From a virus, in UHGV virus genome UHGV-1358694: a stretch of DNA of 42,288 bases; one strand, 5' to 3'. The translations under genes were made by a program, and so were the position numbers. The notes under the pieces were generated by a model, which did not search any database, was not told the origin of the DNA, and saw only the letters and a program-made list of their open reading frames with translations. The stretch's first letter is position 1, and each line of letters begins with the position of its first letter. Shown here piece by piece: positions 18,320 to 42,134 of the stretch.

Positions 18320-18322
18320 AAT

Positions 18323-22747: not shown

Positions 22748-22752
22748 TACGC

Positions 22753-22789: not shown

Positions 22790-22834
22790 GTCCCTGTCTT
22801 AAAGGTCCAAGGGGTCTTTAATAGAGGAACAAAT

Positions 22835-23395: not shown

Positions 23396-23404
23396 GGAGA
23401 GTAT

Positions 23405-25765: not shown

Positions 25766-25766
25766 T

Positions 25767-26354: not shown

Positions 26355-26371
26355 CTTAAGAGGAATATTAA

Positions 26372-29056
26372 ATGCCTGTGATTCAACCCAGTAGACGGGG
26401 GCTAAATATTGGGGGTGTGCAACTGCAGGCCAACGATGTTAGCTTACCATCAACGGTAAGTGAAGTATCCGTTGATACCTCCAAAGCAAAACGCCTAGCC
26501 GCCCTGTCTGGATTCGTGCAGGACTTCGGCGTAGGTTTCGACGAGGCAGTAAAAGAAAACGCCGCAGCCGCCACCGTGCGCGGCGCTATGGATGCTCAGG
26601 GCGCAGTAGATGCAATGGCCTCCAAGGACGAGGCTGTACAGAAGCAAAACATCTTCGTGCGCGAAGCCTACCAGGACGGCTACGTATCCGCCGCCGCGTA
26701 CGACACTCTAGCCAAGTGGCGCACAGAAAGTATTGTGCGCGCTAAGAAAGCCGCCGAGGCTGGGTTGACTGATGAGGAGTTCCAGCAGCAGGAGCAAGAG
26801 CACGTCCAGTCTATGTCGGACAAGCTTGGTATGTATCTACCGGATATGTCCAAGCAGTCCGCTACGACTATATTGCAGCAGCTCCGTGCTACAAGCATGG
26901 CTAACTACACAGCCTTCCAGAAAGGTAGGGCTGCATTTGCCCTGGCTCAGGCTGACCGTGCTCTTGACCGTGGGCTAAGCGCGTCCAGTGAGGAGTTCTA
27001 CCAGCGCTTGCAGGCGGGCCAAGGCGCCGCCGCGCAGATGTCCATTAAGACGGGCTTAGACAGTATCCTGGCTGCTGAGCACTTGGACAAGAACAAGAAG
27101 CTGGACCGGGCCAAGCAGTATCTGGTTAGCGTAGCGCAGCAGACGCAGGACCCGCTGGTAATTAACCAGCTGCAGGAAATGGCCACCAAGGAACTCGGCG
27201 TCAACTCCGTGGATGTCAACGCAGCACTGTATCAGGAGTTCAAGCGCGCCGGTGCACAGATTGAGACACAGGCCCGTTTCGAAATCTCTGATGCAATCCA
27301 GTCTCTCGAAGGTCAGACCCCAGAGCAGCAGGAACAGACTATGCAGCGTATTCGTAGTCGTGTCATTGAGCTGTCGGCATCTGATGTACTCAGCGCCGGG
27401 ACCAGCATGGAGTTCTGGAACAAGGCTCAGACCATTCGTGAGAAGGCAGCAGACGCCCAGGCATTGCGCACAGCAATTACCGGGAATATGCCAAGCTCCA
27501 CTTTGGCGGGTATGTTCAAAGGAGACTTAGATAAGGCACGTACTCAGCTGCTCAAGAGCTTTCCGGACACTCCGGAAGGGAACCTGCAGCTGCTGGCGTA
27601 CGGGAGCAACAGCAAGGACGCGTGGGCAGTCAACGAAGCGCACAAGCGTATGTCTTCGGATATGGCGCGTACGCTGACTACGCTGGACCAGCTCGGTGAG
27701 GATGGTGAGGTTTCCCGCGAGAACGTCAACAGCATCAACTTGTGGGCACAGGCTTATAGCACCAGTACGGACTTAGGGAAGATGGCGCTACTGTCTGAGG
27801 TCCCATCTGAGTGGCGCGGCGTGGTTCAGTCGGCTATTGCTCAGAACCCAAGTAACGCCAGCAACACTATCTTGGACGACCTGCGCCGCCAGGCGCGCAA
27901 CAAGGCTAGCGGCCGCTATACTGATATCCCAGAAAATCCGACGGATAAGATGGTAGACCCAAGCGGCACTGCTAACTGGTTTAGCTTCTTCGGAGATGCG
28001 GATGCCCAGCGACAAGAGGCACGGGCGGCGATGGTGGAGGAGTTCCACTACCTTAAAACCCATAACCCAGAGTCCTTCGCTGGTAAGGATGCTGATGATA
28101 TTAATAAGATGCTCAAAGGCAACATCCAATCCCGTAAATTGGAGCTGGAGGTTGCTGGTGCACCTAGGCATGTGTACCTGCCACCAGGAACTTCCTTGCA
28201 GTCCCTTATGGGGGACTACAAAGGTGATACGGAGCAGTTTACAGCATCGCTGCAGCAGCATATCCAGAATCAAGTTCAGTACCTGTCGGACCCCAGCAAC
28301 ATAGAGCGAGTGGTGATACAGGCAGCCACGGCCGGTAACGCGGGTCAGAACATGTCAGTAATCGTCATTGACAAGAAGGGCAAATTCCAGGATATGTCTG
28401 TGAATCTTCGTGACGTTCAGGCTACTGCTCAGGCTGCGTATGATTCAGCGCTGGCTGGTGAGATGAAGATTGGCAGCGAACAAGTAGGTGTACGTCCCGC
28501 TACCTTCTATGACCACGACAACGGACGTGCTGTCAGCGTGCAAGTCAACGGTCGTAACTCGGTAGGGCTGGAGCCGTCACTGTTTAGTGACATTCTCGCC
28601 ACCACTATGAAGTTCGAAGGGTTCCAAGAAGGTAAGGGCAAGGGTAGTGTAGGCTTCGGTCTGCACATTAACTCTGGCATGCCTGTCCCACAGAGAGTGA
28701 CCATTGATGACGGTATCAGTATCCTCAAGTCCTCCCTGGAGAAGCAGTACGTTCCGAACGTGCAGAAGCAACTCAAGGGGCAGGGTTTGAATGCCTCCGA
28801 CGAGGCGTTAAAGGTCATGGTGGACCTGAACTATCACGGCGGTAACGGTAGCTCTGGCCCTGTAGCAGAGGCGATGGCACAGGTACGCAAGGCTGCTAAG
28901 TCCCCGGTGGGGGCGTATCAGTACCCTGTATCTGAGGCCCAGGGTAGGGCTTGGCAAGCGCTGCGGAATACCCCGGCGTACAAGCAGGCCCAACCTGAGC
29001 GTAAGAAGTACCTAGAACAAAACCTACGCGATTGGCTCTTTGAAGCAACGCACTAA
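26372..29056 (+). CDS. internal virion protein (gp15/phiKMV gp36-like, 894 aa) with a C-terminal lysozyme-like domain
   Basis: Position and size. The C-terminal KFEGFQEGKGKGSVGFGLHI resembles the T4-lysozyme catalytic region [22 protein letters not shown]. phiKMV gp36 has the same architecture. Confidence 0.75.
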   Translation: MPVIQPSRRGLNIGGVQLQANDVSLPSTVSEVSVDTSKAKRLAALSGFVQDFGVGFDEAVKENAAAATVRGAMDAQGAVDAMASKDEAVQKQNIFVREAYQDGYVSAAAYDTLAKWRTESIVRAKKAAEAGLTDEEFQQQEQEHVQSMSDKLGMYLPDMSKQSATTILQQLRATSMANYTAFQKGRAAFALAQADRALDRGLSASSEEFYQRLQAGQGAAAQMSIKTGLDSILAAEHLDKNKKLDRAKQYLVSVAQQTQDPLVINQLQEMATKELGVNSVDVNAALYQEFKRAGAQIETQARFEISDAIQSLEGQTPEQQEQTMQRIRSRVIELSASDVLSAGTSMEFWNKAQTIREKAADAQALRTAITGNMPSSTLAGMFKGDLDKARTQLLKSFPDTPEGNLQLLAYGSNSKDAWAVNEAHKRMSSDMARTLTTLDQLGEDGEVSRENVNSINLWAQAYSTSTDLGKMALLSEVPSEWRGVVQSAIAQNPSNASNTILDDLRRQARNKASGRYTDIPENPTDKMVDPSGTANWFSFFGDADAQRQEARAAMVEEFHYLKTHNPESFAGKDADDINKMLKGNIQSRKLELEVAGAPRHVYLPPGTSLQSLMGDYKGDTEQFTASLQQHIQNQVQYLSDPSNIERVVIQAATAGNAGQNMSVIVIDKKGKFQDMSVNLRDVQATAQAAYDSALAGEMKIGSEQVGVRPATFYDHDNGRAVSVQVNGRNSVGLEPSLFSDILATTMKFEGFQEGKGKGSVGFGLHINSGMPVPQRVTIDDGISILKSSLEKQYVPNVQKQLKGQGLNASDEALKVMVDLNYHGGNGSSGPVAEAMAQVRKAAKSPVGAYQYPVSEAQGRAWQALRNTPAYKQAQPERKKYLEQNLRDWLFEATH

Positions 29057-29059
29057 CCA

Positions 29060-29077
29060 GAGGCCCTTCGGGGCCTC
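29060..29077 (+). promoter_or_regulatory. GC hairpin with a UUCG loop between the internal virion protein genes (RNA processing or stability element, or weak terminator)
   Basis: gaggccc-ttcg-gggcctc. No U-tract follows directly. Confidence 0.4.
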
Positions 29078-29106
29078 CCCTTATCAAAATTCTTTTAGGA
29101 GATATT

Positions 29107-32100
29107 ATGGCTCAGTTTCTGAACCAAGAACCGAATCCACAGGAAAAGGATTCTGCTAAGGGCGCAACACTTAAACCTGCGCCTGAGCGCGTAGATTGGA
29201 ACGATGCCGGGGACAACGGTCTGAACGCACTGGAGCGTGCATCCTTACTGGCGCAGGCCAAGACCCCAGCCACTACCGCCGCAGAGAGCTTTGCATCGGG
29301 TATGGGTAACAGCATCATCGCTGCCGCTATCCGCAAGGCCTCTGCTCCGGCATTTGACCGAGACCCGAACTTTAATGCTAAGCAGACCCTGAGTAGCGAT
29401 ACTCGGGCTAAGCTGTATGCTCCGAATCAGGAAGAGATTGAGTACCTGCACGACTCCGTGTCGGTAGAAGATTACAACTACCGCGTGCAGCAGATGCTTG
29501 AGCAGCGTGACCGTGACCGCTTAATGGCTGACAACACAGTAGCTGGGTTCGCGGGTATGCTGGTAGGAGACTCCCCGTTCATCCTGGCTCCGATGTCTGC
29601 TGCTGGTATTGCTGGCCGTGCGGGCTTAGCTGCACGTACCGCTATCCGCGCCGCTGACGTAGGGTCCGCATTCTACGCACAGGACCAACTGGGGCAGTCT
29701 GCTGCGGTAACTGCACTGATAGCGGGCGTAGCTGGGTTAGACCAGCTCTGGGATATGTCTCGGGCTGCTAAAGCTGCTGCTAAGGCTCGTACTGGGCGTG
29801 AGCCTATGTTCGACCCAGAAGCGCCTACAACGCGTACAGCTAGGGATGCTAATGTTACCGGAGTAGGAGAGGGAGAGGAAATCCTCACTAAGACACTGGA
29901 TGAAAGCATCCAAGTATCTAGAAACAATACCGCCTCCGTGAACATGAAAGCACAGCATGTAGTTCAGTTCTTGAAGAAGTCTGAGCACTTGACAGCAGGA
30001 CAGAAGGCTATTCTGGACACGCTGGGCGATGCTGTAAATGGCATTGATTTTAAACTGGTAGCAGGCTCCGCAAACCGCAGCCGCTACACTTATGCACAAC
30101 AAGATTTAGCTAAGCGGGGAGAGATATCTCTGCGCGCACCTAAGCAAGCTAACGGCAGCACCTGGACTACAGTCGGTGATGCGCTGCGCGCTATGGATGC
30201 AGATACAAGCAAGGTGGCCGTGCACGAACTTATTCATGCCGCTACTGCGCGCGCCATTGACAGTAATCCCGAGATTGCTAAACGCCTGGAGGAAGTGCGT
30301 GCGGTTATTGCAGCAGACTCTACCCTGACACCGCGTATGCGATATTACGCAAGTAATGTGCATGAGATGCTGGCAGGCTTAGGCGATAGCCCTGAATGGG
30401 TTGAGCACCTGGCACGTACACAGTCTCCCACCGGTAAGAGCATGCTCCGCCAACTGGGTGAGTACATCATGAATGCCTTGGGCATCAAAGCCAAGGGCTC
30501 TGCCTTGGAGGATGTCCTGGATGCGTACGAGGACGCCGTTAAGTGGACCGCTAAGGATTATGCAGACCAAGCCCAGAGCTTCCGTAGTGAGGCCTTCCAG
30601 GACCTGGCGGGCAGCACCACCCTCAATGAGGCTAAGCGTGCCCAGGCTATGCTGGACGGCGCTAAGAAGAAGCTATCCACTATGTTTGCCCTGTACGATA
30701 ATATCGCCCAAGGCAACGAAGACTTGGCTAAACTGCTAGTGTCGGATGCGTCCGCAGTAGGCGGCCGTCGCCCGTCAGTGGTAGACTACAAGCGTAACCT
30801 CACTTTGGAGATGGATGCTCGTGCCAGCGTAGTGGAAGATGCTATCCTGGGCGCGTTGAAGGATAAGGGTGTAGGGATGCTCTCACGCTTCTTCCATCGT
30901 AGTAATTTCCGCGCTGAGAGGGCTGCACTGGAAGACCGCCTGAGTAAGTACCTGGATGCTGCCTACAGCGCTGACGTAAACGGTCGCGCCATTCCGGTGC
31001 CGGATGCAGAGATTGCTCCGCTGGTTGATGCCTACCGTCGCTCTGGATGGGCTAGCAAGTGGCACGAGCATATGCTCAATGCCGGTCTAGTGGATGATGG
31101 AGCGTTGGTTAAATCAGACTACTACTTCCCACGCCAGTACAGCTACGACAAGATGCGTCAAGGTATCGCACAGGGTAACACTCTGGATGACTACCGCGCC
31201 CTGTTCCGGTCCGCCCTGCGGGACGTGTACCCGAGCATGGAGTCAGAGGTAGTGCAGCGTGTTGCCAAGGAGATGGTTGACGGCATCTACAATGGCCGTG
31301 TCGGGCAGTCTGGTCCTATGTGGAAGCAGCTGATTAACGGTATGGGTAATGACGAGGTCGTTATGGCTATGCGTAGTGCCGGTGTAGATGAGTCTGCAAT
31401 ACAGAGCTTCTTGGCCGGTAACGTACGCGAATCCGGCAGCACATCCCCTGCGCGGAACCTGCGACAGCGTACTCGGTTCAACATGGACAAAGAGTACCTG
31501 ATTAACGGAAAGAGCATGCGCATGCAGGACCTGATGGATACTGATGTAGCCAAGGTTATGCACGGGTACACTAACCGTATGTCCGGCCGTGTAGGCATGG
31601 CCTATGCAGGCGTACAGGACCTGGGCCAGTTAGCTAAGATGATTGATGAGTCCAAGCACGCACTGGCGGATTCCGCTAAGTGGGAGAAGACTGTCAATGA
31701 TACCATCGACTTTATCCTGGGCGGGGCACCTGCTGACGCTGGACAGCTTCCGGACTTGCTACGAGCAGCTGGGAACATGGCGAACGCCACTATGCTCAAG
31801 AACTCCGGCCTGTATCAGCTGACCGATACTGCTCTGGCTATGAAGGAGTTCGGTATGGCTAGAGTGCTGCGCAGTATGCGTGACCAGCCTTGGTTCAATG
31901 AAGGTGCCGTAGCTATCAAGACTCCTGATATGGCTGCCCGTCTAGACACCGTGCTGCGGGGTAATATCCAGAAGGAGATGCGCTTCCGCTGGCTGAATAC
32001 GTACGCTGACGATAACCTGGACCTGACCCGTCAGGCCTCTTGGTTCAACGTCACCCAGAACGTAGGGCAGGCTGCGCGTCACGTCAACGGCATGAGTATG

Positions 32101-32805
32101 GTGCACCGGTTGCAGGTTAACCTGAACTCCGGTATTGTGGCGGATGAGCTTACGCAGATGTTCAAGGGTGATGCTGAGGCGTTTAAGCGTCTGGAGCGTT
32201 TCGGGCTTACCCGTGACGTTGCGGACCGCGCTATCGCTGCCAACAAGGCCAACCCGGGCGCTATGTTCCAGCCGGACCTGCAAATGCAAGTCGAGGTTGT
32301 AGGGACGCGGATGATGGACTACCTGGTACAGCAAGTTCGTACTGGTGAGACTTCGCACTTCGCGCAGTTCAATCCTATCGGCAAAGTCATTGTAGGATAC
32401 CAGAGCTTCGCACTGGCTGCCACTAACAAGATTCTGCGCAGGGAGCTGAACGATGCTGGGTGGATTGGTGTAGCCCATATTATGGCGTACCAGTTCCCGT
32501 TGATGCTGCTGGCTACTATGGCTAAGCACGGCATGGATGGGAAGGACGTAAGTACCCAGAAACTCATTGGAGAGTCCGTAATGGGTATGAGCGCCATTGG
32601 TGGTATATCGCTACTACAGGATATCTTCCTGGGAGATTCTCCCCGCCACTCGTTGGCGTCTATGGGTTACGTCACAGGGCTGCTCGGGGCCGTACAGGAC
32701 CTGGCTACCGGTAATATGGACATCAAGACCTTCACTAAGCAGGTACCGTTAATCCAGGAATTCGCACCTACGCGAGCTATCATCAATAACTTTGGAGACG
32801 ATTAA
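29107..32805 (+). CDS. large internal virion (ejectosome) protein (T7 gp16-like, 1232 aa)
   Basis: Largest gene and last of the internal-protein trio. Contains motif copy B at 29850-29868. Confidence 0.75.
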   Translation: MAQFLNQEPNPQEKDSAKGATLKPAPERVDWNDAGDNGLNALERASLLAQAKTPATTAAESFASGMGNSIIAAAIRKASAPAFDRDPNFNAKQTLSSDTRAKLYAPNQEEIEYLHDSVSVEDYNYRVQQMLEQRDRDRLMADNTVAGFAGMLVGDSPFILAPMSAAGIAGRAGLAARTAIRAADVGSAFYAQDQLGQSAAVTALIAGVAGLDQLWDMSRAAKAAAKARTGREPMFDPEAPTTRTARDANVTGVGEGEEILTKTLDESIQVSRNNTASVNMKAQHVVQFLKKSEHLTAGQKAILDTLGDAVNGIDFKLVAGSANRSRYTYAQQDLAKRGEISLRAPKQANGSTWTTVGDALRAMDADTSKVAVHELIHAATARAIDSNPEIAKRLEEVRAVIAADSTLTPRMRYYASNVHEMLAGLGDSPEWVEHLARTQSPTGKSMLRQLGEYIMNALGIKAKGSALEDVLDAYEDAVKWTAKDYADQAQSFRSEAFQDLAGSTTLNEAKRAQAMLDGAKKKLSTMFALYDNIAQGNEDLAKLLVSDASAVGGRRPSVVDYKRNLTLEMDARASVVEDAILGALKDKGVGMLSRFFHRSNFRAERAALEDRLSKYLDAAYSADVNGRAIPVPDAEIAPLVDAYRRSGWASKWHEHMLNAGLVDDGALVKSDYYFPRQYSYDKMRQGIAQGNTLDDYRALFRSALRDVYPSMESEVVQRVAKEMVDGIYNGRVGQSGPMWKQLINGMGNDEVVMAMRSAGVDESAIQSFLAGNVRESGSTSPARNLRQRTRFNMDKEYLINGKSMRMQDLMDTDVAKVMHGYTNRMSGRVGMAYAGVQDLGQLAKMIDESKHALADSAKWEKTVNDTIDFILGGAPADAGQLPDLLRAAGNMANATMLKNSGLYQLTDTALAMKEFGMARVLRSMRDQPWFNEGAVAIKTPDMAARLDTVLRGNIQKEMRFRWLNTYADDNLDLTRQASWFNVTQNVGQAARHVNGMSMVHRLQVNLNSGIVADELTQMFKGDAEAFKRLERFGLTRDVADRAIAANKANPGAMFQPDLQMQVEVVGTRMMDYLVQQVRTGETSHFAQFNPIGKVIVGYQSFALAATNKILRRELNDAGWIGVAHIMAYQFPLMLLATMAKHGMDGKDVSTQKLIGESVMGMSAIGGISLLQDIFLGDSPRHSLASMGYVTGLLGAVQDLATGNMDIKTFTKQVPLIQEFAPTRAIINNFGDD
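29850..29868 (+). promoter_or_regulatory. Copy B of the recurring motif (taatgttaccggagtagga), inside the coding sequence
   Basis: Exact 19/19 identity with 18324-18342. Encodes N-V-T-G-V-G with no nearby start codon. Confidence 0.45.
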
Positions 32806-32806
32806 T

Positions 32807-35461
32807 ATGGCATTCAGCTGGCAAGAGTCGGTAAAGCCTGCAGGTACTCAGGATATCCAGTGTGATATTGAGTACCTGGATAAGTCCTATATTCACGTTT
32901 ACTTAGATGGTGCTGAGACCACTGCCTTCACTTGGACCAGCTCCACTAATATTCGCCTGAACTCGCCGCTGTCTGCAGAGACAGCGGTGCTCCTCATTCG
33001 TAAGACTGAACGAGAGTACCTCTACATTGAGTTTGCTAGCGGGGCTCCATTTATTGAGGGCAACGTAGATACCCAGAATACGCAGTTCCTGCACTTAGCT
33101 CAAGAGCTGGTTGAGGGACGCTCTATAGAGGGTTTCTATGGCGATATTAACATGCATCGCTACCGCATCACTAACCTGGGCGGCCCGGTGGATGCGCTGG
33201 ATGCTGCGAACAAGCAGTACGTAGACGCAGGTGACGCACGACTAGATGCTCGCGTAGATGCAGAGGAAGCTGCCCGTAAGGCCGCAGACTCCGCCCTGGA
33301 TGTGCGCACCACTAACCTTGAGCAAACGTACTTTAATGCTAATACTAACAGCTTCCCCTGGTGGACAATTACTGTATTTGATACCAATACAATTACACCC
33401 GGGATGCCGTTCAGTAAGGCGAAGGTGCGTTTAAATGGGGTAACTCAGACTGCTGGGTATTCCTATAGCGTATCTAACGGGGTTATCACCTTTGCGGAAA
33501 CTGTACCTGCAGGTACTCTGGTAGACGTAACTATAGGTGTAGACACCTCAGAAGATACCAGCGCTGTTTCTACTGTTCTAGGTTTATTAGCTGGGGCGGA
33601 TGGTGCTAGTTACATCGGCCTCCCTCACGGCACCTTGGGGCAGGGTGTATACTGGGTAACGCCCGAAATGTTTGGGGCTGTAGGTGATGGCGTTGCAGAT
33701 GACTCTGACGCACTGCAGGCTGCCATGAATGCCTGTGTAGAGTACGAGTGGCAGGGCACCGTTGCTGATACAGACGACCACGGCGGCACCAGTAAGTATA
33801 CCCTAATGTTAACCGGGCAGTACAGGTTCACCCGCACCCTTGTCCTGCCGCCGTTCCTTAGAATGGTGGGGATAGGTCAGTCGTACTTAGCCGACCCAAA
33901 GAATAATGTAGTAAAGTTCATTCCTGATTTCTCCTTACAGGATGGCTACGCATTTGAATCACTAAACTTTGACGAAACAGGTACGCACACGGCAAAGGTT
34001 GATACGTATTCTGCCAGCGCAAGTGACAGGCGCCTAATCACTCGCTGCCCTGGGTTACTGTTAGAAAATTTCTCCGTTGTTGCTGGGGCCAATACTTCCC
34101 TGAAGGGGATTTTCAATTTACGCCTTACACATGGTGCGGTGCTCAAGAGCATCTGTGCACGCATTACGTCCCGAGCAGCTGTTGGGGCGAACCTCACCTG
34201 CACGTGGAATGGCGCATTCCGGGATTGTATTTTCAGGACTGCAACAATTGCTCTGACACTGAGAAATAACGTTACGACATGGCTGTTTGATAACTGCTAT
34301 TTCCAGACTACCCAAGGCGACAACCCACTGCCGTGGTTTACTGATTTCCCTGAATTCTATGGGTACCCGACAAGACAAACCTGGACAGCTTGTGTAGCTG
34401 GCACTTGGTCCTCACCCCATTTTAAGGATTGCACACTAGAGAATTCTCAAAACGGCTACCGGCTTCACAGATGCCAGGGCGGTTCCGAGCACGGAACTTA
34501 CTTTGAGAATATCGAGGAAGAATGCTACGCCCTAATGGAGTGCGTACTGAGTATGACTCCAGGGTATTTTTACAGTAATAAAGGTGCGGCAGCTACCACT
34601 CGCATGGTATTTTTGTCAGGGTCTCTTGCAAATTCAGCAAGCATCGACATGACCAATACTAACTACTTTAGTCAGACTGTTGACCCTTATCACTGCTCGG
34701 GTGCCAGCAAGTTGGTTGTGACTACTGCGGGGGATATGCGTACGAGTATGAAGATAACCTACCCTAACAAGGTTATTTTCAACTGCTACTCGCAATTCTC
34801 TGGGTACTGTGATGTGTATGTATCCTCCACTGGCAATGATGGTTACAACGGGTATAGTGCCACCTACCCCGTCAAGACGCTGCAAGAAGCACTGCTGCGC
34901 TGCCAACCCGGTTATAAGAACCGAATCTATTTGGCGGCAGGGGATACTATTACAACAACCAAGTACTACTCGGACGGGTACCAGCCAAACCGTAGGTTCT
35001 TCCAAGGATACGATATTCGCATTATTGGGGACTCTACTAATAGGCCCACTTTGGTATTGGCCGAAGATAGCGCATGGTTATCTGGTGTCGGGATTAAAGA
35101 CGGCAGCATCTCTTTCTCCCAGCTAAACATAAATCTGGTGCTCTCAAGTAGTAGCAGTGCTGCTGCAACAGCATTTGGTGCACTGGTTTATGCGACGGGC
35201 AGTGCCCAAGTAATCCTGGACTCTTGTACTGTGAGTGGCAGCAGTTCCAGCACACCGGCATTCTTAGTTTCACCTGCTCAGTTGGCTGGGATGGCTACGA
35301 TACTTATTAATGATTGTACGTTGGCAAATATTAACATAGTGCAGAGTTCATCTATATCTGGAATGGGCTTAGCATATATACTAAACCACTCCGGGTGCTC
35401 ATTTACGTCAGTAACTGAGGGTGCTACGTTTGCTAAGATATATGCTAGGGCTATAGCATAA
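32807..35461 (+). CDS. tail fiber / tailspike with a pectate-lyase-type beta-helix (probable polysaccharide depolymerase), 884 aa
   Basis: The N-terminal ~110 aa resemble the T7 gp17 tail-attachment domain (IEYLDKSYIHVYLDG). Central VTPEMFGAVGDGVADDSDALQAAMN is the classic pectate-lyase-3/tailspike motif. GGAGA 8 nt upstream. The distal part drops to ~40-48% GC. Confidence 0.85.
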   Translation: MAFSWQESVKPAGTQDIQCDIEYLDKSYIHVYLDGAETTAFTWTSSTNIRLNSPLSAETAVLLIRKTEREYLYIEFASGAPFIEGNVDTQNTQFLHLAQELVEGRSIEGFYGDINMHRYRITNLGGPVDALDAANKQYVDAGDARLDARVDAEEAARKAADSALDVRTTNLEQTYFNANTNSFPWWTITVFDTNTITPGMPFSKAKVRLNGVTQTAGYSYSVSNGVITFAETVPAGTLVDVTIGVDTSEDTSAVSTVLGLLAGADGASYIGLPHGTLGQGVYWVTPEMFGAVGDGVADDSDALQAAMNACVEYEWQGTVADTDDHGGTSKYTLMLTGQYRFTRTLVLPPFLRMVGIGQSYLADPKNNVVKFIPDFSLQDGYAFESLNFDETGTHTAKVDTYSASASDRRLITRCPGLLLENFSVVAGANTSLKGIFNLRLTHGAVLKSICARITSRAAVGANLTCTWNGAFRDCIFRTATIALTLRNNVTTWLFDNCYFQTTQGDNPLPWFTDFPEFYGYPTRQTWTACVAGTWSSPHFKDCTLENSQNGYRLHRCQGGSEHGTYFENIEEECYALMECVLSMTPGYFYSNKGAAATTRMVFLSGSLANSASIDMTNTNYFSQTVDPYHCSGASKLVVTTAGDMRTSMKITYPNKVIFNCYSQFSGYCDVYVSSTGNDGYNGYSATYPVKTLQEALLRCQPGYKNRIYLAAGDTITTTKYYSDGYQPNRRFFQGYDIRIIGDSTNRPTLVLAEDSAWLSGVGIKDGSISFSQLNINLVLSSSSSAAATAFGALVYATGSAQVILDSCTVSGSSSSTPAFLVSPAQLAGMATILINDCTLANINIVQSSSISGMGLAYILNHSGCSFTSVTEGATFAKIYARAIA

Positions 35462-35474
35462 TAGGAGGTATGAG

Positions 35475-35741
35475 ATGTCATTTAGTGTCACTAAAGAGTA
35501 CAGCACTGTGCTAAACTATCCTGAATTGGGTATACTCCGAGCCGGTGAGGGGGTCGTATGTACGGTAGAATATACGGCCACTCACATCAACGCGGTGGGG
35601 ACAGGGTCTGTAGAGGTACAAATACAAACTAAACTAGCGGACGGGGGTACGGGTATACTGGTATATACTTTTGAACCCGACGGGTTGGATAACTTATTGA
35701 TGCAAGCCGAGGCTAGTTTTAAAGCCACTATAGGAGTGTAA
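35475..35741 (+). CDS. hypothetical protein downstream of the fiber gene (88 aa)
   Basis: Strong SD ATAGGAGGTATGAG. Confidence 0.55.
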   Translation: MSFSVTKEYSTVLNYPELGILRAGEGVVCTVEYTATHINAVGTGSVEVQIQTKLADGGTGILVYTFEPDGLDNLLMQAEASFKATIGV

Positions 35742-35742: not shown

Positions 35743-36045
35743 ATGGCAGGGGCGGCTAAACGTAGTCGCCTCTCGGAGCTGCACCGCATGTTCACCGAGG
35801 CTTTGATTGAAGAAATCAAACAGTCTAAGGAAGATGAGGTGCCGCTCCCCGCCGCAGATAAATCGGTCATTGCTAAGTTCTTGAAGGATAATGACATTAC
35901 CGCGGATGCAGATTCCGCGGAGATGCAGGACCTTAGAGACGAGTTCGATGACGAACTAGCGGCGCGCAGAGAGGCGCGTAAGCAAGAGATTCTAAACAAA
36001 GTTGGTGGTTCAGACTCTGAGGACTTACTAGAAGGAATTGTCTAA
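35743..36045 (+). CDS. putative terminase small subunit (100 aa)
   Basis: Small, highly charged and helical, immediately upstream of the large terminase and overlapping it as TAATG. Assigned by position only. Confidence 0.5.
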   Translation: MAGAAKRSRLSELHRMFTEALIEEIKQSKEDEVPLPAADKSVIAKFLKDNDITADADSAEMQDLRDEFDDELAARREARKQEILNKVGGSDSEDLLEGIV

Positions 36046-37901
36046 TGGTATCGGTGAAGACTGCGCGACGATTGCGCATGCTCAACCAGAAACTTACTGG
36101 TTATAGCGCGAACCCGCGCAGTATTCCCAAAGAGGAGCGCGAGGACATCGCGATGATGATGGCAGCCGCGCTAAGCGACTTCCGGGAATTCGCATACATT
36201 GGTATGCGGTTCCTAGGCTTTACGCTTACTGACATGCAGGCCGACATTGCAGAGTACATGCAGAAGGGCCCTAGAAAGCGCATGGTGGCTGCGCAGCGTG
36301 GCGAGGCTAAGTCTACACTGGCTGCACTGTACGCCGTCTGGAGGCTCATACAGGACCAATCCTGTCGTATCCTGATTGTGTCCGGTGCAGAGAAACAGGC
36401 GTCCGACGTAGCTAACTTAATCATTCGTATGCTGGAAACCTGGCCGTTGCTGTGCTACTTGAAGGCTGACCCTACTCGTGGGGACCGTACTTCATTCGAA
36501 GGATATGATGTAAACTGCGACCTGAAACCCCTGGACAAGTCCGCCAGCGTCGCGTGCGTTGGTATCACCGCATCCCTGCAGGGGAAGCGTGCGGACCTGC
36601 TGATTCCAGATGATATCGAGACCACCAAGAACGGCTTAACGCAAACCCAACGTGAGCAGCTACTGATGATTTCTAAAGACTTCGCAGCTATCTGTACTCA
36701 TGGAGATATTCTGTACCTGGGTACACCTCAGACCAAGGACAGCATCTATAAAACCCTGCCGGGACGTGGCTTCGAGGTCCGCGTGTGGCCTGGGCGCATT
36801 CCGTCTGTTGAAATGGAAGAGAGATATGGAAGTACACTTGCTCCTTATATCCTGGAGCTTATTGAGCGCGGATATAAACGCACCGGCTTCGGCGTCGACG
36901 GGACGCTAGGCGAGAGCACGGACACCGGGCGCTACGACGAGGATGCGCTGATTGAAAAGGAACTGGACTTCGGTCCGGAAGGCTTCCAGCTGCAGTACAT
37001 GCTCGACACCACCCTGTCAGACCAAATGCGTACGCGTATCAAGCTTTCGGATATGCTGGTTTACTCCGGCAGCCAGGATTCATCCCCGGAGACGTTCTCC
37101 TACATCGCGGATCGCCGGTACATGTACCAGCACGAGCATGAGGGGATTATGGGCCAGCAGATGTACTTCCCGGCATTCTACGGGGACATGCACCTGCCGT
37201 ACCAGCATAAGGTGCTGGTGGTGGACCCAGCTGGTTGTGGCGGAGACGAAGTGTCCTACGCTGCTGGGGGTGCTGCGAACTCGTACATTCACCTATTCTC
37301 CGTGGGCGGCTTCCAAGGAGGTATCAGCGAAGAGAACATTGATAAACTAATTGACCTGTGCGTAGAGTTGGACATCCCGGATATGGTGGTGGAGAGCAAC
37401 ATGGGGCACGGTACCGTGTCTATGCTTATCCTGAACCGGCTGCGGGAGCGACGTCTCGCCGGTATCGGCGTAAGGGACCTGAACAACTCCACGCAGAAAG
37501 AGCGTCGTATAATCGACACAATCAGCCCAGTTACTCGACGTCACCGCCTGGTGGTGCATGAGCGTGCTATTCACGATGATATCAGCACTTGTATGGCGTA
37601 CTCCCGCGATAGACGTTGGTTGTACTCTGCGTTCGCGCAGTTGTCCGGTATCACGTATGACCGCGGTAGCCTGGCGAAGGATGACCGAGCAGATGCAATC
37701 GCCATGATGGTGGCTACGCTGAACGGGCATCTGGTGGAAGATGAGAAAGTGGTGGCTGAGCGTGAGTCTGAGAAGATGGCTCGGGCCTTCATTGAGAATC
37801 CACTGGATTGGGCACAAAGCAAAGTGTCTAAGGGCCTTCGGGGTGTAGCTGCTCGGCTGCAGAACCGCGGCAGAGGTAAACAACATAGAGGAAGAAGATA
37901 A
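36045..37901 (+). CDS. terminase large subunit (T7 gp19-like, 618 aa)
   Basis: Walker A-like QRGEAKSTLAALYAVW, Walker B ADLLIPDDIETTKN and a nuclease-domain VVDPAGCGGDEVSYAAGG motif. Confidence 0.9.
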   Translation: MVSVKTARRLRMLNQKLTGYSANPRSIPKEEREDIAMMMAAALSDFREFAYIGMRFLGFTLTDMQADIAEYMQKGPRKRMVAAQRGEAKSTLAALYAVWRLIQDQSCRILIVSGAEKQASDVANLIIRMLETWPLLCYLKADPTRGDRTSFEGYDVNCDLKPLDKSASVACVGITASLQGKRADLLIPDDIETTKNGLTQTQREQLLMISKDFAAICTHGDILYLGTPQTKDSIYKTLPGRGFEVRVWPGRIPSVEMEERYGSTLAPYILELIERGYKRTGFGVDGTLGESTDTGRYDEDALIEKELDFGPEGFQLQYMLDTTLSDQMRTRIKLSDMLVYSGSQDSSPETFSYIADRRYMYQHEHEGIMGQQMYFPAFYGDMHLPYQHKVLVVDPAGCGGDEVSYAAGGAANSYIHLFSVGGFQGGISEENIDKLIDLCVELDIPDMVVESNMGHGTVSMLILNRLRERRLAGIGVRDLNNSTQKERRIIDTISPVTRRHRLVVHERAIHDDISTCMAYSRDRRWLYSAFAQLSGITYDRGSLAKDDRADAIAMMVATLNGHLVEDEKVVAERESEKMARAFIENPLDWAQSKVSKGLRGVAARLQNRGRGKQHRGRR

Positions 37902-38278
37902 TGGCATCAATCATCGCGGCTAAAGCTGTGGATGTACAGTATGAGATTGTGGGTAAGGCCCAGAATCTGGAGAAGCAAGTATCTCCAGACTACAACGTGG
38001 GCTTTGTTGGCACCGCGGCCCTAGACACTCTGAATACGTTCTTTACGTATATGGAGGGTCAGGGCTATACCGCCACCGCGGAAGGCGCTAGCTTCGTTGC
38101 TGACGGCACGCTACAGGCGCGTCTATTCAGTATGCTGTCGCAGCTGAGCAAGACCGGTTACGTTGCGCTGACTGGCACTGGTATGCCCTTGGGTGAGGGT
38201 TCAGGTACCGACTTTGATACCTCATTCACCGCCCTGCAATCTGCATTTGAGGCTGCTACAGTAGCAGTAGAAGCTTAA
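37901..38278 (+). CDS. hypothetical protein (125 aa)
   Basis: ATGA overlap with the terminase stop. Confidence 0.5.
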   Translation: MASIIAAKAVDVQYEIVGKAQNLEKQVSPDYNVGFVGTAALDTLNTFFTYMEGQGYTATAEGASFVADGTLQARLFSMLSQLSKTGYVALTGTGMPLGEGSGTDFDTSFTALQSAFEAATVAVEA

Positions 38279-38301
38279 TAATAAACCAAAGGAGAGTACA
38301 C

Positions 38302-38484
38302 ATGGCAATTGCAAAAGCAACCCCAGCGCAACAGCAGGAGCTACTGCGTCAGCTGAACATTCTCGGTAAGGACCTGTACGCCATCCTTACGCAGCCGCAG
38401 AACGTGGACCAGACTGGCGCCGCTTTCGATACCAAGCTTACTGCGCTGGAAGATGCAGTAGACGCAGTGAAGGCTGCTAGCTAA
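38302..38484 (+). CDS. hypothetical protein (60 aa)
   Basis: AAAGGAGAG 6 nt upstream. Confidence 0.5.
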   Translation: MAIAKATPAQQQELLRQLNILGKDLYAILTQPQNVDQTGAAFDTKLTALEDAVDAVKAAS

Positions 38485-39724: not shown

Positions 39725-39725
39725 T

Positions 39726-39911
39726 ATGGCACTGGTTGAGCTTGTGCAAGCAAAGGCACCGGTACTGGCGGAGGCTACTACAGACTCCATTGGTGGGGTA
39801 CTACAAGGGGTTGCTGTTGCTGACGCAGCAGATACAACTCCAGAGGCACTGGCGGTTACTGTAGCGGAGCTGTTGGCGTCTCTGCGGGCCTCTGGGGCTA
39901 TCGCTGAGTAA
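39726..39911 (+). CDS. small acidic protein (61 aa)
   Basis: GGAGG 5 nt upstream. Last ORF before the non-coding terminal region. Confidence 0.45.
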   Translation: MALVELVQAKAPVLAEATTDSIGGVLQGVAVADAADTTPEALAVTVAELLASLRASGAIAE

Positions 39912-40050
39912 GTGCTAGGGTAATCCACAAGGTGAGCTACGGGACCTCTTAGGGTGACTCTGGGTGATTCTGCGGGTGCACGTCTATACCTGGACCTGAA
40001 ATTTATTAGACTCACGCGAGGCCCTCCCTCACCCTCAGCGACACCAATTG

Positions 40051-40063
40051 CCCCCATAGGGGG
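40051..40063. other. perfect hairpin cccccataggggg next to the poly-G run
   Basis: 5-bp G/C stem with a 3-nt loop, directly upstream of the poly-G tract. Confidence 0.4.
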
Positions 40064-40080
40064 TGCCTAGCGTCAATTTA

Positions 40081-40155
<75 letters not shown>

Positions 40156-40159
40156 TGGA

Positions 40160-40850
40160 TGGGTGGACGTCTAGCCGTCTAGATGGCCCTAGGGCGCTCC
40201 CAGCGGGCCTGTGCTGCGTTCTAGGGCTATCGCTAGTGCTACCCTATGCCTATCCCTGCGCGTCCACTAGGGCGCTTCCTGTGCTCTCTGTGGGTCATAG
40301 GGGCGTGCTCTGCCTTGCTTATTTTGTGCGTCCATTGTGGGCCTGCCTAGTGCCTGCGCAGTGGGGCCATAGGGTATGCCTAGTGCTATCCCTAGTGCGT
40401 ACTAGGCTATCCACTGGCTATCCTTAGTGCTTTACATTGTGCTGATTCTATGCTACGCTGCGCGCTCCCCACTAGGGCGCACTTCCACTACCCAGCACAC
40501 TCCAGCGCTATCCCAATGCTATCCCTTTGCTCTTACTTTCATTCGAAAGCTATTATGAAATGAAGTAACCGGAGTAGGAGGGTTTTAGGGCACTATATAC
40601 ACTACTACTCACTATGCACTCACTAGTATGTCCCTGTGCCTACGCAGTAGGCTGACATACCTACATAGTCACCGCATCACTCCGTGTCCTTACACTGCGT
40701 ACAGACACTGCGTTCTGCTCCATGTAGTATTATATAGTGTTAGGTAGTATTGGTTCATACTGGCTAGTATTGGCTAGACGTGGCTAGCAGTGGCTACAGC
40801 CAGTGTCGGCACAGTGCTATCCCCAGTGGCTATCCCTAGAATATATAAGG
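40160..40850 (+). repeat. non-coding terminal region packed with short direct repeats (gctatccc x8, tgcctagtgc x2, ggctag x3, tagtattgg x2)
   Basis: The motifs recur on one strand only. No ORF has an RBS here. The region lies between the right-end lysis genes and the first early gene. Confidence 0.6.
40566..40579 (+). promoter_or_regulatory. Copy C of the recurring motif (taaccggagtagga) in the terminal non-coding region
   Basis: Matches 16 of 20 positions of copy A, with the core accggagtagga identical. No start codon follows. Confidence 0.4.
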
Positions 40851-40858
40851 AGTTATAC

Positions 40859-41413
40859 ATGTTACCGTCTAGTCGGGCTATGGCTAAAGCCACTGGTAGT
40901 ACATACTACTACACAGGGAAGCCCTGTAAGTATCAGCACATAGCGAAACGCCTCACCAGTTCAGGTGAATGCTCTGAGTGCTTTAAGGTTAGGAGTACCA
41001 GCCCCGCCCGTAAGGAGCGCATGCGAGAGTATCATAAGGTTTATCAGGTACAGAAAGCTGAGGCTTTAAGAGAGTACCGCAAGACACGCCGACCTAAGCA
41101 CATTATGACAGAGGAGCAGTTACAGCGTAAGGCTCGCCACAGTGCGCGCTACCGTGCTGCGCGCACTCAATCCGTACCTTCATGGTATGGTGAGTGGGAT
41201 GAGTTCGTTATGTTGGAGGCTATCGCTTTAGCAGCCGAGAGGGCAGAGTGTACGGGTATAGCGTGGCACGTAGACCATATGCTGCCCCTAAAGGCTAAAG
41301 GGGTATGTGGCTTGCACTGTGCTGATAATATTCAGGTGATACCCGCTACGCTTAACACGCATAAGTGTAACAGGCTGCTATTCACGGAGCCTTTGGAGTG
41401 GCTAAAGGCATAA
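40859..41413 (+). CDS. HNH endonuclease with an N-terminal Cys-rich region (184 aa); first early gene
   Basis: AAGGAG 6 nt upstream. The track ORF from 40790 has no RBS. C-terminal WHVDHMLPLKAKGVCGLHCADNIQVIPATLNTHKCNR is an HNH motif (H-x-D-H...N...N). N-terminus has CKYQH...CSEC. Confidence 0.7.
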   Translation: MLPSSRAMAKATGSTYYYTGKPCKYQHIAKRLTSSGECSECFKVRSTSPARKERMREYHKVYQVQKAEALREYRKTRRPKHIMTEEQLQRKARHSARYRAARTQSVPSWYGEWDEFVMLEAIALAAERAECTGIAWHVDHMLPLKAKGVCGLHCADNIQVIPATLNTHKCNRLLFTEPLEWLKA

Positions 41414-41419
41414 ACTTGA

Positions 41420-41456
41420 GGTAATACAGTGTTATAAATGCTGTATTACCTTTTTT
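41420..41456 (+). terminator. rho-independent terminator
   Basis: Stem ggtaatacag / ctgtattacc (10 bp) with an 11-nt loop, followed by TTTTTT and a second T6 run. Confidence 0.85.
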
Positions 41457-41593
41457 CTAAAAAGTGCTTGCTTTTTTAAATCTGCTAGGTGTATAGTTAT
41501 CCCATCGAAAGCGATACGGGATACCGGGTAGCTCTAGATTCCAGAGTCGACTGGATAAGTAGACAGCCTGATAAGTCATATGAAAAACAGGTA

Positions 41594-41622
41594 TTGACAA
41601 TAGCAGTAAGCGGTTTTATAGT
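41594..41622 (+). promoter_or_regulatory. near-consensus sigma70 promoter (TTGACA - 17 bp - TATAGT) with an A-rich upstream stretch; probable early host-RNAP promoter
   Basis: -35 TTGACA at 41594-41599, a 17-nt spacer, -10 TATAGT at 41617-41622. It lies after the terminator and upstream of the genes at 41869 onward. Confidence 0.65.
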
Positions 41623-41868
41623 TCGAATCATGTTGCGGAGCAGTGTAGCGCCTAAAGGTGCTCTGACCACTAACCCTAGATACATGGTAGTAGTAAGCGT
41701 GCCGGACGTTATCACCGGGGTTCTGAGGCAAACCATACTGCCGAGGCGAGAGCAGCTCGCTCCTCTGAATCGAGGGAACAAGGCGCGGAGTGTATCCCGC
41801 AAAGAGCATATAACATAGCGTAGCAGTAACAAGGCTGCGCTAGATTATGTTCTCTGAGAGGTGAGATT

Positions 41869-42066
41869 ATGCGCAAAGCAAAACGACTAGCATTGCGGCG
41901 GAATATGCAGTTATCACTGAACCCTACCGACGACGTGCCACTCACTGTGAAGCCCAGCAAACAAGGACTTAGCAGCGAGCACAGGGTGAGGGGAAAGCAA
42001 AAACAAAAGGGCGGCAGTAAACAGCCTAGTGGGTGGCCTACTGTTAACTCCCAATTTGGGCACTAA
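41869..42066 (+). CDS. small very basic early protein (65 aa)
   Basis: GAGGTGAG 5 nt upstream. Lys/Arg/Gln-rich, probably disordered. Confidence 0.5.
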   Translation: MRKAKRLALRRNMQLSLNPTDDVPLTVKPSKQGLSSEHRVRGKQKQKGGSKQPSGWPTVNSQFGH

Positions 42067-42134
42067 TTACAGCCTATAGCATCCTATGGGGTGCTATGTG
42101 AAGTAATTACCTAAACCAATCAACGAGGTGCATC

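Follow-up and report, generated by a model that had tools for sequence, protein, structure and literature searches.

Results

The tailspike gene and its neighbours

The window, that is, the whole stretch of 42,288 nucleotides (nt) analysed here (UHGV virus genome UHGV-1358694), contains only one large receptor-binding protein (RBP) gene, the tailspike gene at 32807..35461 on the plus strand. The open reading frame (ORF) was uninterrupted from 32792/32807 to 35461 (+), and the ATG at 32807 gave an 884-aa product identical to the database protein P0001. P0001 was present on at least 24 contigs of ~43.7 kb with unchanged gene context, showing that the window phage recurs in metagenomes in the same arrangement each time. 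Neither a second RBP nor terminal repeats were found in the window, and gp55, the second RBP of phage KpV41, gave no tblastn match anywhere in it.

Compared with KpV41, the backbone showed 94.1% nt identity over 99% of window 15000-32800 (17.8 kb). On the other side of the tailspike, the small terminase subunit gene terS (35743..36045, +) was recognized by phrog_891 (E 2e-31), and from ~35760 on the identity to KpV41 was back at 92-97% with shared gene order. By nt identity and synteny with the type members, the phage belongs to Drulisvirus, the KP34-like Klebsiella podophages. Since backbone identity resumes at terS, this gene was taken as the right-hand flank, outside the cassette described below.

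Between the tailspike gene and terS lies a small ORF of 88 aa (35475..35741, +), preceded by an AGGAGG ribosome-binding site (35463..35468, +) that was read from the sequence 6 nt before the ATG. The ORF matched the phrog_7836 profile (E 6.3e-11 over aa 1-86) and sits directly after the spike, which together place it in this family, a PHROG family without assigned function; no Pfam or NCBIfam family matched it.

The N-terminal part of the spike is of Drulisvirus type

The first 155 residues (32807..33271, +) form a particle-attachment anchor of the T7 gp17 N-terminal type. Pfam Phage_T7_tail (PF03906) matched aa 13-140 with E 1.1e-12 and 48.3 bits against a cut-off of 25.2, which confirmed the anchor proposed in the first-pass annotation. 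The identity to KpV41 was ~94% up to ~33270, indicating that the anchor was inherited together with the Drulisvirus backbone. Solved in-situ podophage tail-fibre chains aligned to aa 1-263 (23sh_r, E 5e-104; 8es4_G; 8vbx_R).

A second N-terminal domain followed at aa 156-271 (33272..33619, +), a diverged allele of Drulisvirus type. It showed 65-70% nt identity to KpV41, and distant blastn gave ~70-73% to many Drulisviruses, with the similarity extending to window ~33618; toward phi1_0660xx and K66PH128C1, gene nt 1-650/732 were 82-84% identical. The GC content at third codon positions (GC3) of this domain was 0.44, and 0.1% of backbone windows were equally low. Residues 1-271 as a whole matched Drulisvirus spikes only (gene nt 1 to ~660-730; ~44-kb podophages). 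The junction or linker was located at aa ~272-282 (33620..33652, +), as Drulisvirus similarity stops by ~33618 and similarity to other carriers begins at ~33653; in the structure model, aa 261-280 had a pLDDT below 50.

The distal module is shared with Klebsiella phages of other lineages

As shown by the identity profile against KpV41, similarity was ~94% to ~33270, 65-70% to 33590, random over 33590-35720 and 92-97% from ~35740, and the distal module could not be aligned with the KpV41 spike. This module, aa 283-884 (33653..35458, +), comprises a predicted enzymatic beta-helix body and a C-terminal beta-rich domain. Its relatives were found in seven phages of other lineages (49-358 kb) and in two prophages of K. 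quasipneumoniae genomes, with 78-81% aa identity to the spikes of KP13-26, KP13-16, KP13-7, P19-618, phi1_146037, KP13-27 and KP13-2, and nt identity to phages of other families reached 76-98%. The carriers included the jumbo Alcyoneusvirus KP13-7, the Stephanstirmvirinae KP13-16 and KP13-26 and the Webervirus KP13-2, the others being unclassified. All named carriers are Klebsiella phages, and five unrelated phages isolated on the single strain Kp-P1/KP13 all had the module, which ties it to host specificity. In contrast, it occurred in 0 of ~270 other Drulisvirus relatives. At least 10 N-terminal anchor clusters bore the module, with the Drulisvirus fusion solely in P0001; among 5.8 billion proteins no other joined it to a Drulisvirus anchor, and the closest relative outside the P0001 cluster had 79% identity. 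Thus, as the first-pass annotation had expected, the two parts of the protein found different best-matching lineages, Drulisvirus-type podophages for the N-terminal part and seven phages of other lineages for the distal part.

The left end of the module carries the N-terminal cap motif of the beta-helix, FGAVGDGVADDSDALQAAMN, at aa 289-308 (33671..33730, +). Many unrelated PHROG spike families matched only aa ~282-312, and the pattern MFGA[VK]GDG was found in beta-helix genes of many bacterial phyla. When species-representative genomes were scanned with the module alignment, the cap motif appeared in many phyla with no full-length relative. The motif is therefore generic, and it likely serves as a recombination anchor.

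The right end was formed by the C-terminal domain, aa 766-884 (35102..35458, +), where the spike is most diverged and richest in AT and where the structure model was beta-rich. It had 60-62% aa identity to the carriers, a proportion of synonymous differences (pS) of at least 0.77 and a GC3 of 0.403, and no backbone window was as low. Among the carriers, the spike C-terminus was conserved through the last residue. An intramolecular chaperone of the Peptidase_S74 type was considered for this domain and rejected, with no chaperone or peptidase Pfam family at E up to 1.

The small downstream ORF travels with this distal module. It shared 44-49% aa identity with ORFs after the same module in the seven phages, which were 87-89 aa long and started 9-12 nt after the spike gene, and 32% with KpV41 gp47. 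Among 50,697 phage records, its tblastn relatives were only those seven phages and KZag1. The carrier cassettes, small ORF included, were 80-94% identical to each other in nt, and this identity ran through the small ORF and stopped at its end, with random similarity beyond both ends of the cassette. Because the 88-aa ORF belongs to the replaced block, the block ends at 35741 and not at 35461. In comparison with sister Drulisviruses, the exchanged unit therefore comprises both the distal spike and the 88-aa ORF (~33620/33653-35741). The swap of a distal module proposed in the first-pass annotation was thus upheld, but its extent was revised, as the unit starts ~250-280 nt upstream of the proposed 33900.

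With the family profile of the small ORF, KpV41 gp47 was detected at E 4e-34 and the ORF that follows P0024 at E 3e-32, and an 89-aa ORF at the same position (+11 nt) after P0012 was recognized by position alone. That this C-terminal domain is invariably followed by the small ORF did not hold as a strict rule: P0021 has no such ORF downstream of its homologous C-terminal domain (E 1e-77), and the KpV41 family member follows an unrelated spike. Exhaustive phmmer searches with the small ORF returned a few 88-94-aa proteins and giant proteins with Ig-like repeats (SprB, cadherin-like, Big_9), the latter probably reflecting compositional or beta-strand likeness. Its AlphaFold2 model (pLDDT 69) showed four strands and a C-terminal helix, with no PDB match better than E 0.3.

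A tract of recent shared ancestry within the module

Within the beta-helix body, a tract of ~0.8 kb (33890..34700, +; aa ~361-631) stood out because its nt identity to the carriers reached 85-98%, whereas the sequence to its left and right gave 45-75%. Its pS was 0.32-0.49, compared with at least 0.77 in the flanking blocks, and the two-breakpoint maximum chi-square was 65-103 versus a null maximum of 18-21. Outside the tract, the module was synonymously saturated against every known relative. While the cassettes of the KP13-series carriers are mutually 80-94% identical, the window copy is that close to them only in 33890-34700. The GC step noticed near 33.9 kb is genuine, but it marks an internal recombination breakpoint at the left edge of this tract and not the start of the module, and the description of the module as recently exchanged holds for the tract, the remainder being saturated.

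These data also raise the possibility that only 33890-34700 was imported, and that 33653-33890 and 34700-35741 are old residents of an unsampled Drulisvirus sub-lineage. The flanks had GC3 values close to the backbone (0.59 for aa 283-375 and 0.57 for aa 632-765, not significantly below it) and are saturated against all carriers, and the phage recurs in metagenomes with constant gene context, all of which would fit long residence. Against this, the fusion of the module to a Drulisvirus anchor is missing from the ~270 relatives and from the rest of the 5.8 billion proteins, and the C-terminal block (GC3 0.40) and the small ORF (0.455) are both strongly AT-shifted. We regard this narrower import as possible but doubtful; it concerns timing and does not conflict with a mosaic origin of the spike.

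Base composition of the module

The GC content of 33900-35461 was 47.4%, compared with a window mean of 53.9% and 55.2% in the coding backbone, and only 0.34% of 1562-nt windows were as low, all of them overlapping that region. The depression reported in the first-pass annotation was thus real, but it had been measured against a genome value of 57-60%, which is too high. The 200-nt windows in the region ranged from 0.44 to 0.525 and not from ~40 to 48%, and the last 200 nt of the spike gene, given as 38%, had 40.5%; the minimum of 37.5% was found at 35300-35499, a stretch that covers the stop codon and runs into the next ORF. Nor was the dip limited to 33900-35461, as GC was 45-51% already at 32700-33100 and 33300-33600, and values below 50% persisted to ~36000.

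Codon usage was not uniform either, as had been anticipated. GC1/2/3 were 0.465/0.487/0.508 in the module and 0.604/0.421/0.630 in the backbone, so that the module differed by -0.139 at position 1, +0.066 at position 2 and -0.122 at position 3. For GC3, the backbone windows gave 0.629+/-0.033 against 0.508 for the module, and in GC3 as in GC1 every backbone window lay above the module.

Such a dip might be purely compositional, because beta-helix spikes are rich in Ser/Thr/Asn/Tyr and the locus is AT-rich in all Drulisviruses, in which case vertical inheritance could suffice. Indeed, the first codon position (GC1) deviated most, the module was enriched in T, S, C, F, Y and N, and the unrelated distal modules of KpV41, VLC1/5, HenuGS and KP-Rio showed a similar dip (GC 0.49-0.54; GC3 0.51-0.55 versus 0.63-0.65 in terL). 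As this dip in unrelated modules is of the same size, composition alone is no proof of transfer, nor does it date one, and the GC discontinuity lost its value as the sign of recency for which it had been taken. However, amino-acid bias accounted for 37% of the GC drop, while ~63% lay at third codon positions, and composition as the sole explanation is refuted, and left very improbable, by the similarity data, which gave 76-98% nt identity between the module and phages of other families but no alignment to a 94%-identical sister genome. Under horizontal acquisition, the low GC would have two sources, the Ser/Thr/Asn/Tyr-rich composition seen in GC1, and AT-rich synonymous sites kept from a module pool circulating among lower-GC genomes.

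Predicted fold and function

The AlphaFold2 monomer model of the module (pLDDT 82.9) showed regular short strands over model residues ~34-354. Foldseek returned 55 PDB matches with E of at most 0.001, every one of them a beta-helix spike or a glycanase, with CBA120 TSP1 best (E 4e-15), followed by K64-ORF41, Sf6, HK620 and GH28/PL6 helices; BFVD gave 279 structure matches, and viral tailspikes were matched there. Among solved structures the best match reached TM 0.47 with 13% identity, and among predicted viral structures TM 0.54 with 18%. These results predicted a right-handed parallel beta-helix of the tailspike type. The pectate-lyase signature noticed at ~33.6 kb in the first-pass annotation was present as the cap motif, but the corresponding Pfam family PF12708 (Pect-lyase_RHGA_epim, "pectate lyase 3") stayed below its cut-off (aa 289-357, 24.0 bits against 27), so that the beta-helix assignment rests on the structure model; precomputed PF12708 matches were present in several homologues.

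The spike has the architecture of a Klebsiella depolymerase, with an anchor, a central beta-helix and a C-terminal domain in the RBP slot. We infer that the module has capsule depolymerase activity and a role in host range; its enzymatic activity, trimer formation and substrate are predictions, as is any role of the small ORF. Alternatively, the module could bind a receptor without enzymatic activity, or could act as an enzyme on another glycan, such as O-antigen or an exopolysaccharide, instead of capsule. No catalytic residues were identified in it, the PF12708 match was sub-threshold, and CBA120 TSP1, the solved structure nearest in fold, is no capsule enzyme. The family is also without a characterised member, as no characterised depolymerase close to it was found in the protein database, the DepoCatalog supplements or the predicted viral structures. 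However, every named carrier infects Klebsiella, the nearest cellular homologue lies within a capsule locus, and nearly all characterised Klebsiella depolymerases use the same fold class, which makes this alternative improbable. No close structural twin with known chemistry, whether lyase or hydrolase, was among the PDB and BFVD matches. As for the carriers, none is listed under its name in the DepoCatalog supplementary tables, neither capsule nor serotype is mentioned in the paper describing the KP13 phages, and a literature search by name found no paper for phi1_146037 or P19-618; the P19-618 accession is at least listed in the DposFinder paper.

A homologue inside the Klebsiella capsule locus

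A homologue of the module with a Tat signal, P0027/P0028, was observed inside a Klebsiella capsule (K) locus, with 47% identity over 586 aa. The locus is AT-rich, at 31-35% GC. Similarity between the phage module and this homologue started exactly at the cap motif, where the module begins, and one K. quasipneumoniae genome contained both the K-locus gene and a prophage with the module. In the PDB, P0027 had sequence matches only to CBA120 TSP1 and Phi92 gp150, and K-locus typing via E. coli genomes gave no match. We tentatively propose, as a conjecture that is rather more likely to fail than to hold, that the beta-helix body of the spike and a Tat-exported enzyme from the K locus of the attacked capsule type share direct ancestry, and that the 88-aa ORF is a dedicated spike partner for assembly or an accessory function and not a hitch-hiker. 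Such a link to the low-GC K locus would account for the AT-rich state of the module in phages of high GC and its GC-rich state in those of low GC.

Discussion

The mosaic ancestry of this locus, its boundaries and its composition are established by the data, and the predicted fold is that of a tailspike. We conclude, with a probability of about 0.85, that the window phage has a single Drulisvirus tailspike of mixed ancestry, in which the anchor of the genus is joined to a horizontally shared beta-helix module. Residues 1-271, as the genus-specific anchor, would fix the trimer to the tail, and residues 283-884 would be the body of a small family spread horizontally among Klebsiella phages and prophages. 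The beta-helix would bind and cleave the capsular polysaccharide of one K-type, allowing the virion to tunnel to the outer membrane and thereby setting the host range. The exchanged unit has the generic cap motif as its left boundary and the start of terS as its right boundary. The cassette itself is recombinant, with recent common ancestry between 33890-34700 and the KP13-type carriers and an older allele, otherwise unsampled, in the tract flanks and the small ORF.

Exchange of depolymerase modules is a textbook route of host-range change in Klebsiella phages, and the capsule types open to a given Klebsiella phage depend on these modules; exact boundary maps are therefore useful for host-range prediction and therapeutic phage engineering. 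The present spike offers a clean junction on a Drulisvirus chassis at aa ~272-283. As the swapped unit includes the small gene, this gene might need to be moved along with the module, and the tract suggests that part of the helix body may be exchangeable by itself. The K-locus homologue could help to assign capsule specificity to an uncharacterised depolymerase family. Were the relationship general, phage specificity could be predicted from whether a host carries the K-locus gene, and host-gene capture would be one way in which new depolymerases arise.

Among known systems, the closest counterpart is KpV41 gp46, a KP34-like depolymerase in the same slot, after the internal virion protein and before terS, with 83% aa identity in the anchor (aa 1-271) and the same plan of anchor, linker, beta-helix and C-terminal domain, in line with the modular scheme that Latka et al. 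2019 (PMC6872550) set out for RBPs. The distal 600 aa of KpV41, VLC1/5, HenuGS and KP-Rio are nevertheless unrelated to those of the window spike, and KpV41 has gp55 as a second RBP, which the window phage lacks. The spikes of the KP13 series and the other carriers show the opposite pattern, with a homologous module to the C-terminus but each with its own N-terminal anchor of ~94-186 aa. This agrees with reports that central and C-terminal depolymerase domains spread together across phages of podo-, sipho-, myo- and jumbo type while the N-terminal chassis stays specific to each lineage, sharing between Drulisvirus and Alcyoneusvirus being explicitly described (DepoCatalog, PMC13385381; bioRxiv 10.64898/2026.05.12.724579); co-transfer of a small downstream ORF is not mentioned in the available portions of these sources.

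At the level of fold, the module shares the right-handed beta-helix of the tailspikes CBA120 TSP1 (4OJ5/4OJ6), K64-ORF41 (8X8M), Sf6, HK620 and LKA1 gp49. CBA120 TSP1 was matched with a Foldseek probability of 1.0 and with sequence-level similarity around the cap motif (aa 242-351), and at a TM of 0.47 and 13% identity neither its substrate nor its chemistry is transferable to the module. The K-locus homologue P0027/P0028, rather than the window gene, resembles the WceF/AmsF-type glycanases of bacterial exopolysaccharide clusters (PMC7949094). The likeness is one of fold and context, with no sequence relationship seen to WceF: in both cases a beta-helix protein related to phage spikes is encoded where a polysaccharide synthesis cluster ends.

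The spike gene lies in a Drulisvirus backbone

The tailspike was encoded by a single uninterrupted ORF on the plus strand, running from a TTG at 32792 or an ATG at 32807 to 35461. The ATG at 32807 immediately follows the stop codon of the upstream internal virion protein gene (1232 aa), and a start at this codon gives an 884-aa product identical to the database protein P0001. The Klebsiella phage KpV41, like many other Drulisvirus members, was 94% identical over 15000-32800, and the spike gene stood where KpV41 has gp46 ('tail fiber protein'). In public metagenomes, at least 24 contigs of ~43.7 kb carried P0001, with identical neighbours in all of them, indicating that the phage is recurrent in nature; it was absent from 50,697 GenBank phage records.

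A second receptor-binding protein was not found in the window. KpV41 carries gp55 (651 aa; locus L008, 11929-13884) after its endolysin, whereas 39725-42288 of the window held small ORFs only, with no large ORF past the endolysin and no match in tblastn with gp55. Directly after terL, an ORF at 37901-38278 (125 aa) showed 63-77% nucleotide identity to KpV41 in surroundings of 92-99%, marking a variable spot at 37900-38310.

The distal spike and a small ORF form an exchanged cassette

As the first-pass annotation had proposed, the N-terminus was T7 gp17-like (PF03906 at aa 13-140, E 1.1e-12, exceeding the curated cut-off), and comparison by megablast and protein search showed that the N- and C-terminal parts have different nearest relatives. 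Nucleotides 1 to ~470-730 of the gene matched only ~44-kb podophages (80-90% identity), whereas nucleotides 847-2310 matched seven Klebsiella phages of 49-358 kb (76-83%). Protein matches to the distal 603 aa came from the same seven phages only, at 78-81% identity up to the final residue. These carriers were the jumbo phage KP13-7 (Alcyoneusvirus), KP13-16 and KP13-26 (Stephanstirmvirinae), KP13-2 (Webervirus), KP13-27, P19-618 and phi1_146037, and the N-terminus of each carrier spike was its own and unrelated. Among 29 database relatives, the module (aa 283-884) stood on at least 10 distinct anchor clusters, and P0001 was the only fusion to a Drulisvirus anchor (aa 1-271). Given these different relatives, the interpretation as an exchanged module survives; the original observation was partly confirmed, and its interpretation is supported with corrected coordinates.

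Nucleotide identity to KpV41 was ~94% as far as ~33270 and 65-70% between 33290 and 33590; from ~33590 it was at random level until ~35720, and it stood at 92-97% from ~35740 onward, where terS begins (35743). Drulisvirus-type similarity was traceable to ~33618 at most (HenuGS being the best case) and carrier-type similarity began at ~33653, which places the junction at aa ~272-283, just ahead of the N-terminal cap motif of the beta-helix and in a segment disordered in the structure model. Six carriers, belonging to different virus families, shared the matching block together with the small ORF at 80-94% nucleotide identity, and identity was random just beyond both ends; the mobile cassette is therefore the distal spike plus the small ORF. 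The replaced block, previously placed at 33900-35461, spans ~33620/33653-35741, extending further at both ends and including the 88-aa ORF.

The second N-terminal domain (33272-33619, aa 156-271) was a diverged allele, with ~65-70% nucleotide identity to KpV41 beside flanking anchor at 94%, so that the anchor region is also mosaic; its GC3 was unusually low (0.44). Drulisvirus-type anchors 84-89% identical to that of the window also occurred in PQ049254.1 (hits H38 and H77, 'Acinetobacter phage vB_AbaP_Indie') and PQ429080.1 (H9, 'Escherichia phage vB_VIPECOTPH05B'), which may reflect unexpected hosts or naming issues.

The GC dip is shared across the genus

The GC dip had been read as the mark of a recent exchange. 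The dip at 33900-35461 was real (47.4% GC, the lowest 1.5-kb stretch of the window, 0.34 percentile), but the genome-typical level was 53.9% for the window mean and 55.2% for long genes rather than 57-60%, and the last 200 nt of the gene had 40.5% rather than 38%; a 37.5% minimum at 35300-35499 spans the spike stop codon. Nor did the depression start at ~33.9 kb, as the start of the gene was already depressed and the low GC extended to ~36.0 kb. The lowest 200-nt window of the whole sequence (34.5%) was at ~10200-10400, just upstream of an ORF starting at 10320.

GC at codon positions 1, 2 and 3 was 0.465/0.487/0.508 in the module versus 0.604/0.421/0.630 in the backbone of long genes (differences of -0.139, +0.066 and -0.122), and no equal-length backbone window was as low as the module at GC1 or GC3. 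T, S, C, F, Y and N were enriched in the module, and E, R, Q, K and D depleted. From the position-wise differences, ~63% of the net drop is attributable to synonymous-site composition and ~37% to amino-acid bias.

In the carriers, module GC was 0.43-0.46 irrespective of flanking GC (0.35-0.48); relative to its flanks, the module was richer in GC in the jumbo phage and richer in AT in the Drulisvirus of the window. Two prophages showed module GC of 0.44-0.47 versus 0.53-0.57 in adjacent tail genes. In KpV41, VLC1, VLC5, HenuGS and KP-Rio, unrelated distal modules had GC3 of 0.51-0.55 versus 0.63-0.65 in their own terL. Because these unrelated modules dip too, the dip is not diagnostic of recent exchange. 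A dip is common to the genus, as a feature of the modules that circulate at the spike locus; it supports foreign ancestry in general and does not date the transfer in the window.

The module is itself a mosaic

Nucleotide identity between the window copy and the carriers was ~60% over 33750-33930, 85-98% over 33930-34700, 60-75% over 34700-35100 and 45-65% from 35100 to the end of the small ORF. In aa 376-631, synonymous divergence (pS) to the carriers was 0.32-0.49 and matched the level found between carriers, which was uniform (0.35-0.50). The remaining three blocks of the spike were saturated (pS at least 0.77), and the small ORF had a pS of 0.67-0.85. The identity pattern therefore reflects age, not constraint. 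A two-breakpoint maximum chi-square test on third codon positions, run against four different carriers with a permutation null, placed a tract at aa 361/364-631/637 (nt ~33890-34700) against all four (chi-square 65-103 versus a permutation maximum of 18-21). The GC step at 33.9 kb thus proved real and coincides with the left breakpoint. What it marks is the border of a 0.8-kb tract of recent shared ancestry within the beta-helix rather than the start of the foreign module.

GC3 fits this internal mosaic: two old flanking blocks had 0.59 and 0.57 (not significantly under the backbone), the recent tract had 0.50, the C-terminal domain 0.40 and the small ORF 0.455. For the three old blocks (aa 283-375, 632-765 and 766-884), proteins in a collection of 5.8 billion sequences came no nearer than ~82%, 79% and 62%, respectively. 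The carrier modules were patchy too; KP13-16, for example, was more diverged from P19-618 at aa ~496-559 (chi-square 46.5, null maximum 24), which suggests ongoing recombination inside the module family.

The module is predicted to form a beta-helix

Of the pectate-lyase-3 signature reported at ~33.6 kb, the motif was present at aa 289-308 (nt 33671-33730), but the Pfam match was sub-threshold and covered the cap motif only. As a motif it is generic; the matches of many PHROG spike families, unrelated to one another, were confined to aa ~282-312, and the pattern MFGA[VK]GDG was seen across many bacterial phyla. An AlphaFold2 model of aa 261-884 from 30 homologues (pLDDT 82.9) showed regular short strands over model residues ~34-354, followed by a lower-confidence stretch and a beta-rich C-terminal part. 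The top Foldseek match was CBA120 TSP1 (E 4e-15, TM 0.47), followed by a Klebsiella K64 depolymerase, the Sf6, HK620 and LKA1 spikes, phi29 gp12 and GH28/GH55/PL6 enzymes; the viral library returned tailspikes and pectate-lyase-superfamily proteins only. The predicted beta-helix fold is a solid assignment.

The module was common to five taxonomically unrelated phages, all isolated on the single strain Kp-P1 (= KP13), and was also present in one lambdoid and one P2-like prophage of K. quasipneumoniae. These occurrences link it circumstantially to host specificity.

A small ORF mostly accompanies the C-terminal domain

The small ORF (35475-35741, plus strand, 88 aa, phrog_7836) has AGGAGG 6 nt before its ATG. 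A homologous 87-95-aa ORF was located 9-12 nt past the spike in all seven carriers and the P2-like prophage (L017, 4261-4548), and an 89-aa candidate member (L093, 7122-7391) occupies the corresponding position past the lambdoid-prophage spike. In the phage collection, relatives were detectable in the same seven genomes plus one weak match, and in no others.

Across KpV41 and a Drulisvirus panel (L010-L014), the spike-terS interval differed by spike type. It held a 95-aa member of the small-ORF family in KpV41 and an unrelated ~54-aa ORF in VLC1, VLC5 and HenuGS, with an additional 80-aa ORF in VLC1, whereas it was empty in TUMS_K1, whose 'fiber' is anchor-only (308 aa). The small ORF was absent downstream of the database relatives P0021 and P0029 and of the K-locus homologues. 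It is strongly tied to the window-type C-terminal domain, though not without exception. Fold and family searches gave no assignment; we infer that it would be an accessory gene within the cassette, whose product may act in assembly or associate with the spike.

A cellular relative lies in the capsule locus

P0027 and P0028, the full-length relatives at the greatest distance, were non-phage genes within a canonical Klebsiella K-locus (wzc, wbaP, glycosyltransferases, wzy, wzx, pyruvyl-transferase, homologue, gnd, rmlBADC, ugd) and were present in many K. pneumoniae-complex chromosomes. The homologue lies between the pyruvyl-transferase gene and gnd (L090, 10001-11890; L091 and L092, 10001-11908) and has 34-35% GC in a surrounding locus of 31%. 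At its N-terminus P0027 has a twin-arginine-type signal (MSISRRRFLSGA...SNA), and it was 47% identical to window aa 283-866 (E 4e-180), the alignment starting exactly at the cap motif.

In the K. quasipneumoniae assembly GCA_024431655.1 (L093, locus-tag prefix NPN65), pieces of the K-locus homologue (cluster members P0057 and P0060) occurred together with an integrated prophage of lambdoid type, and the spike of that prophage, P0012, carries the module. This one co-occurrence suggests the capsule produced by the K-locus in question as the target of the module family, which may have a common origin with a host capsule-processing enzyme. A precedent for such an enzyme related to spikes is WceF in Pantoea (PMC7949094).

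Relation to known modular exchange

The locus has well-resolved junctions and an internal recombinant tract, and a small ORF was transferred along with the spike module; this ORF and the homologue in the K-locus merit follow-up. In the established model for Klebsiella phage receptor-binding proteins, depolymerase bodies are swapped modularly on lineage-specific anchors (PMC6872550), and further reports describe central and C-terminal domains shared across morphotypes, including Drulisvirus with Alcyoneusvirus (PMC13385381; bioRxiv 10.64898/2026.05.12.724579). The locus is an instance of this known modular exchange, in which an uncharacterised, putative depolymerase family is mounted on a Drulisvirus chassis.
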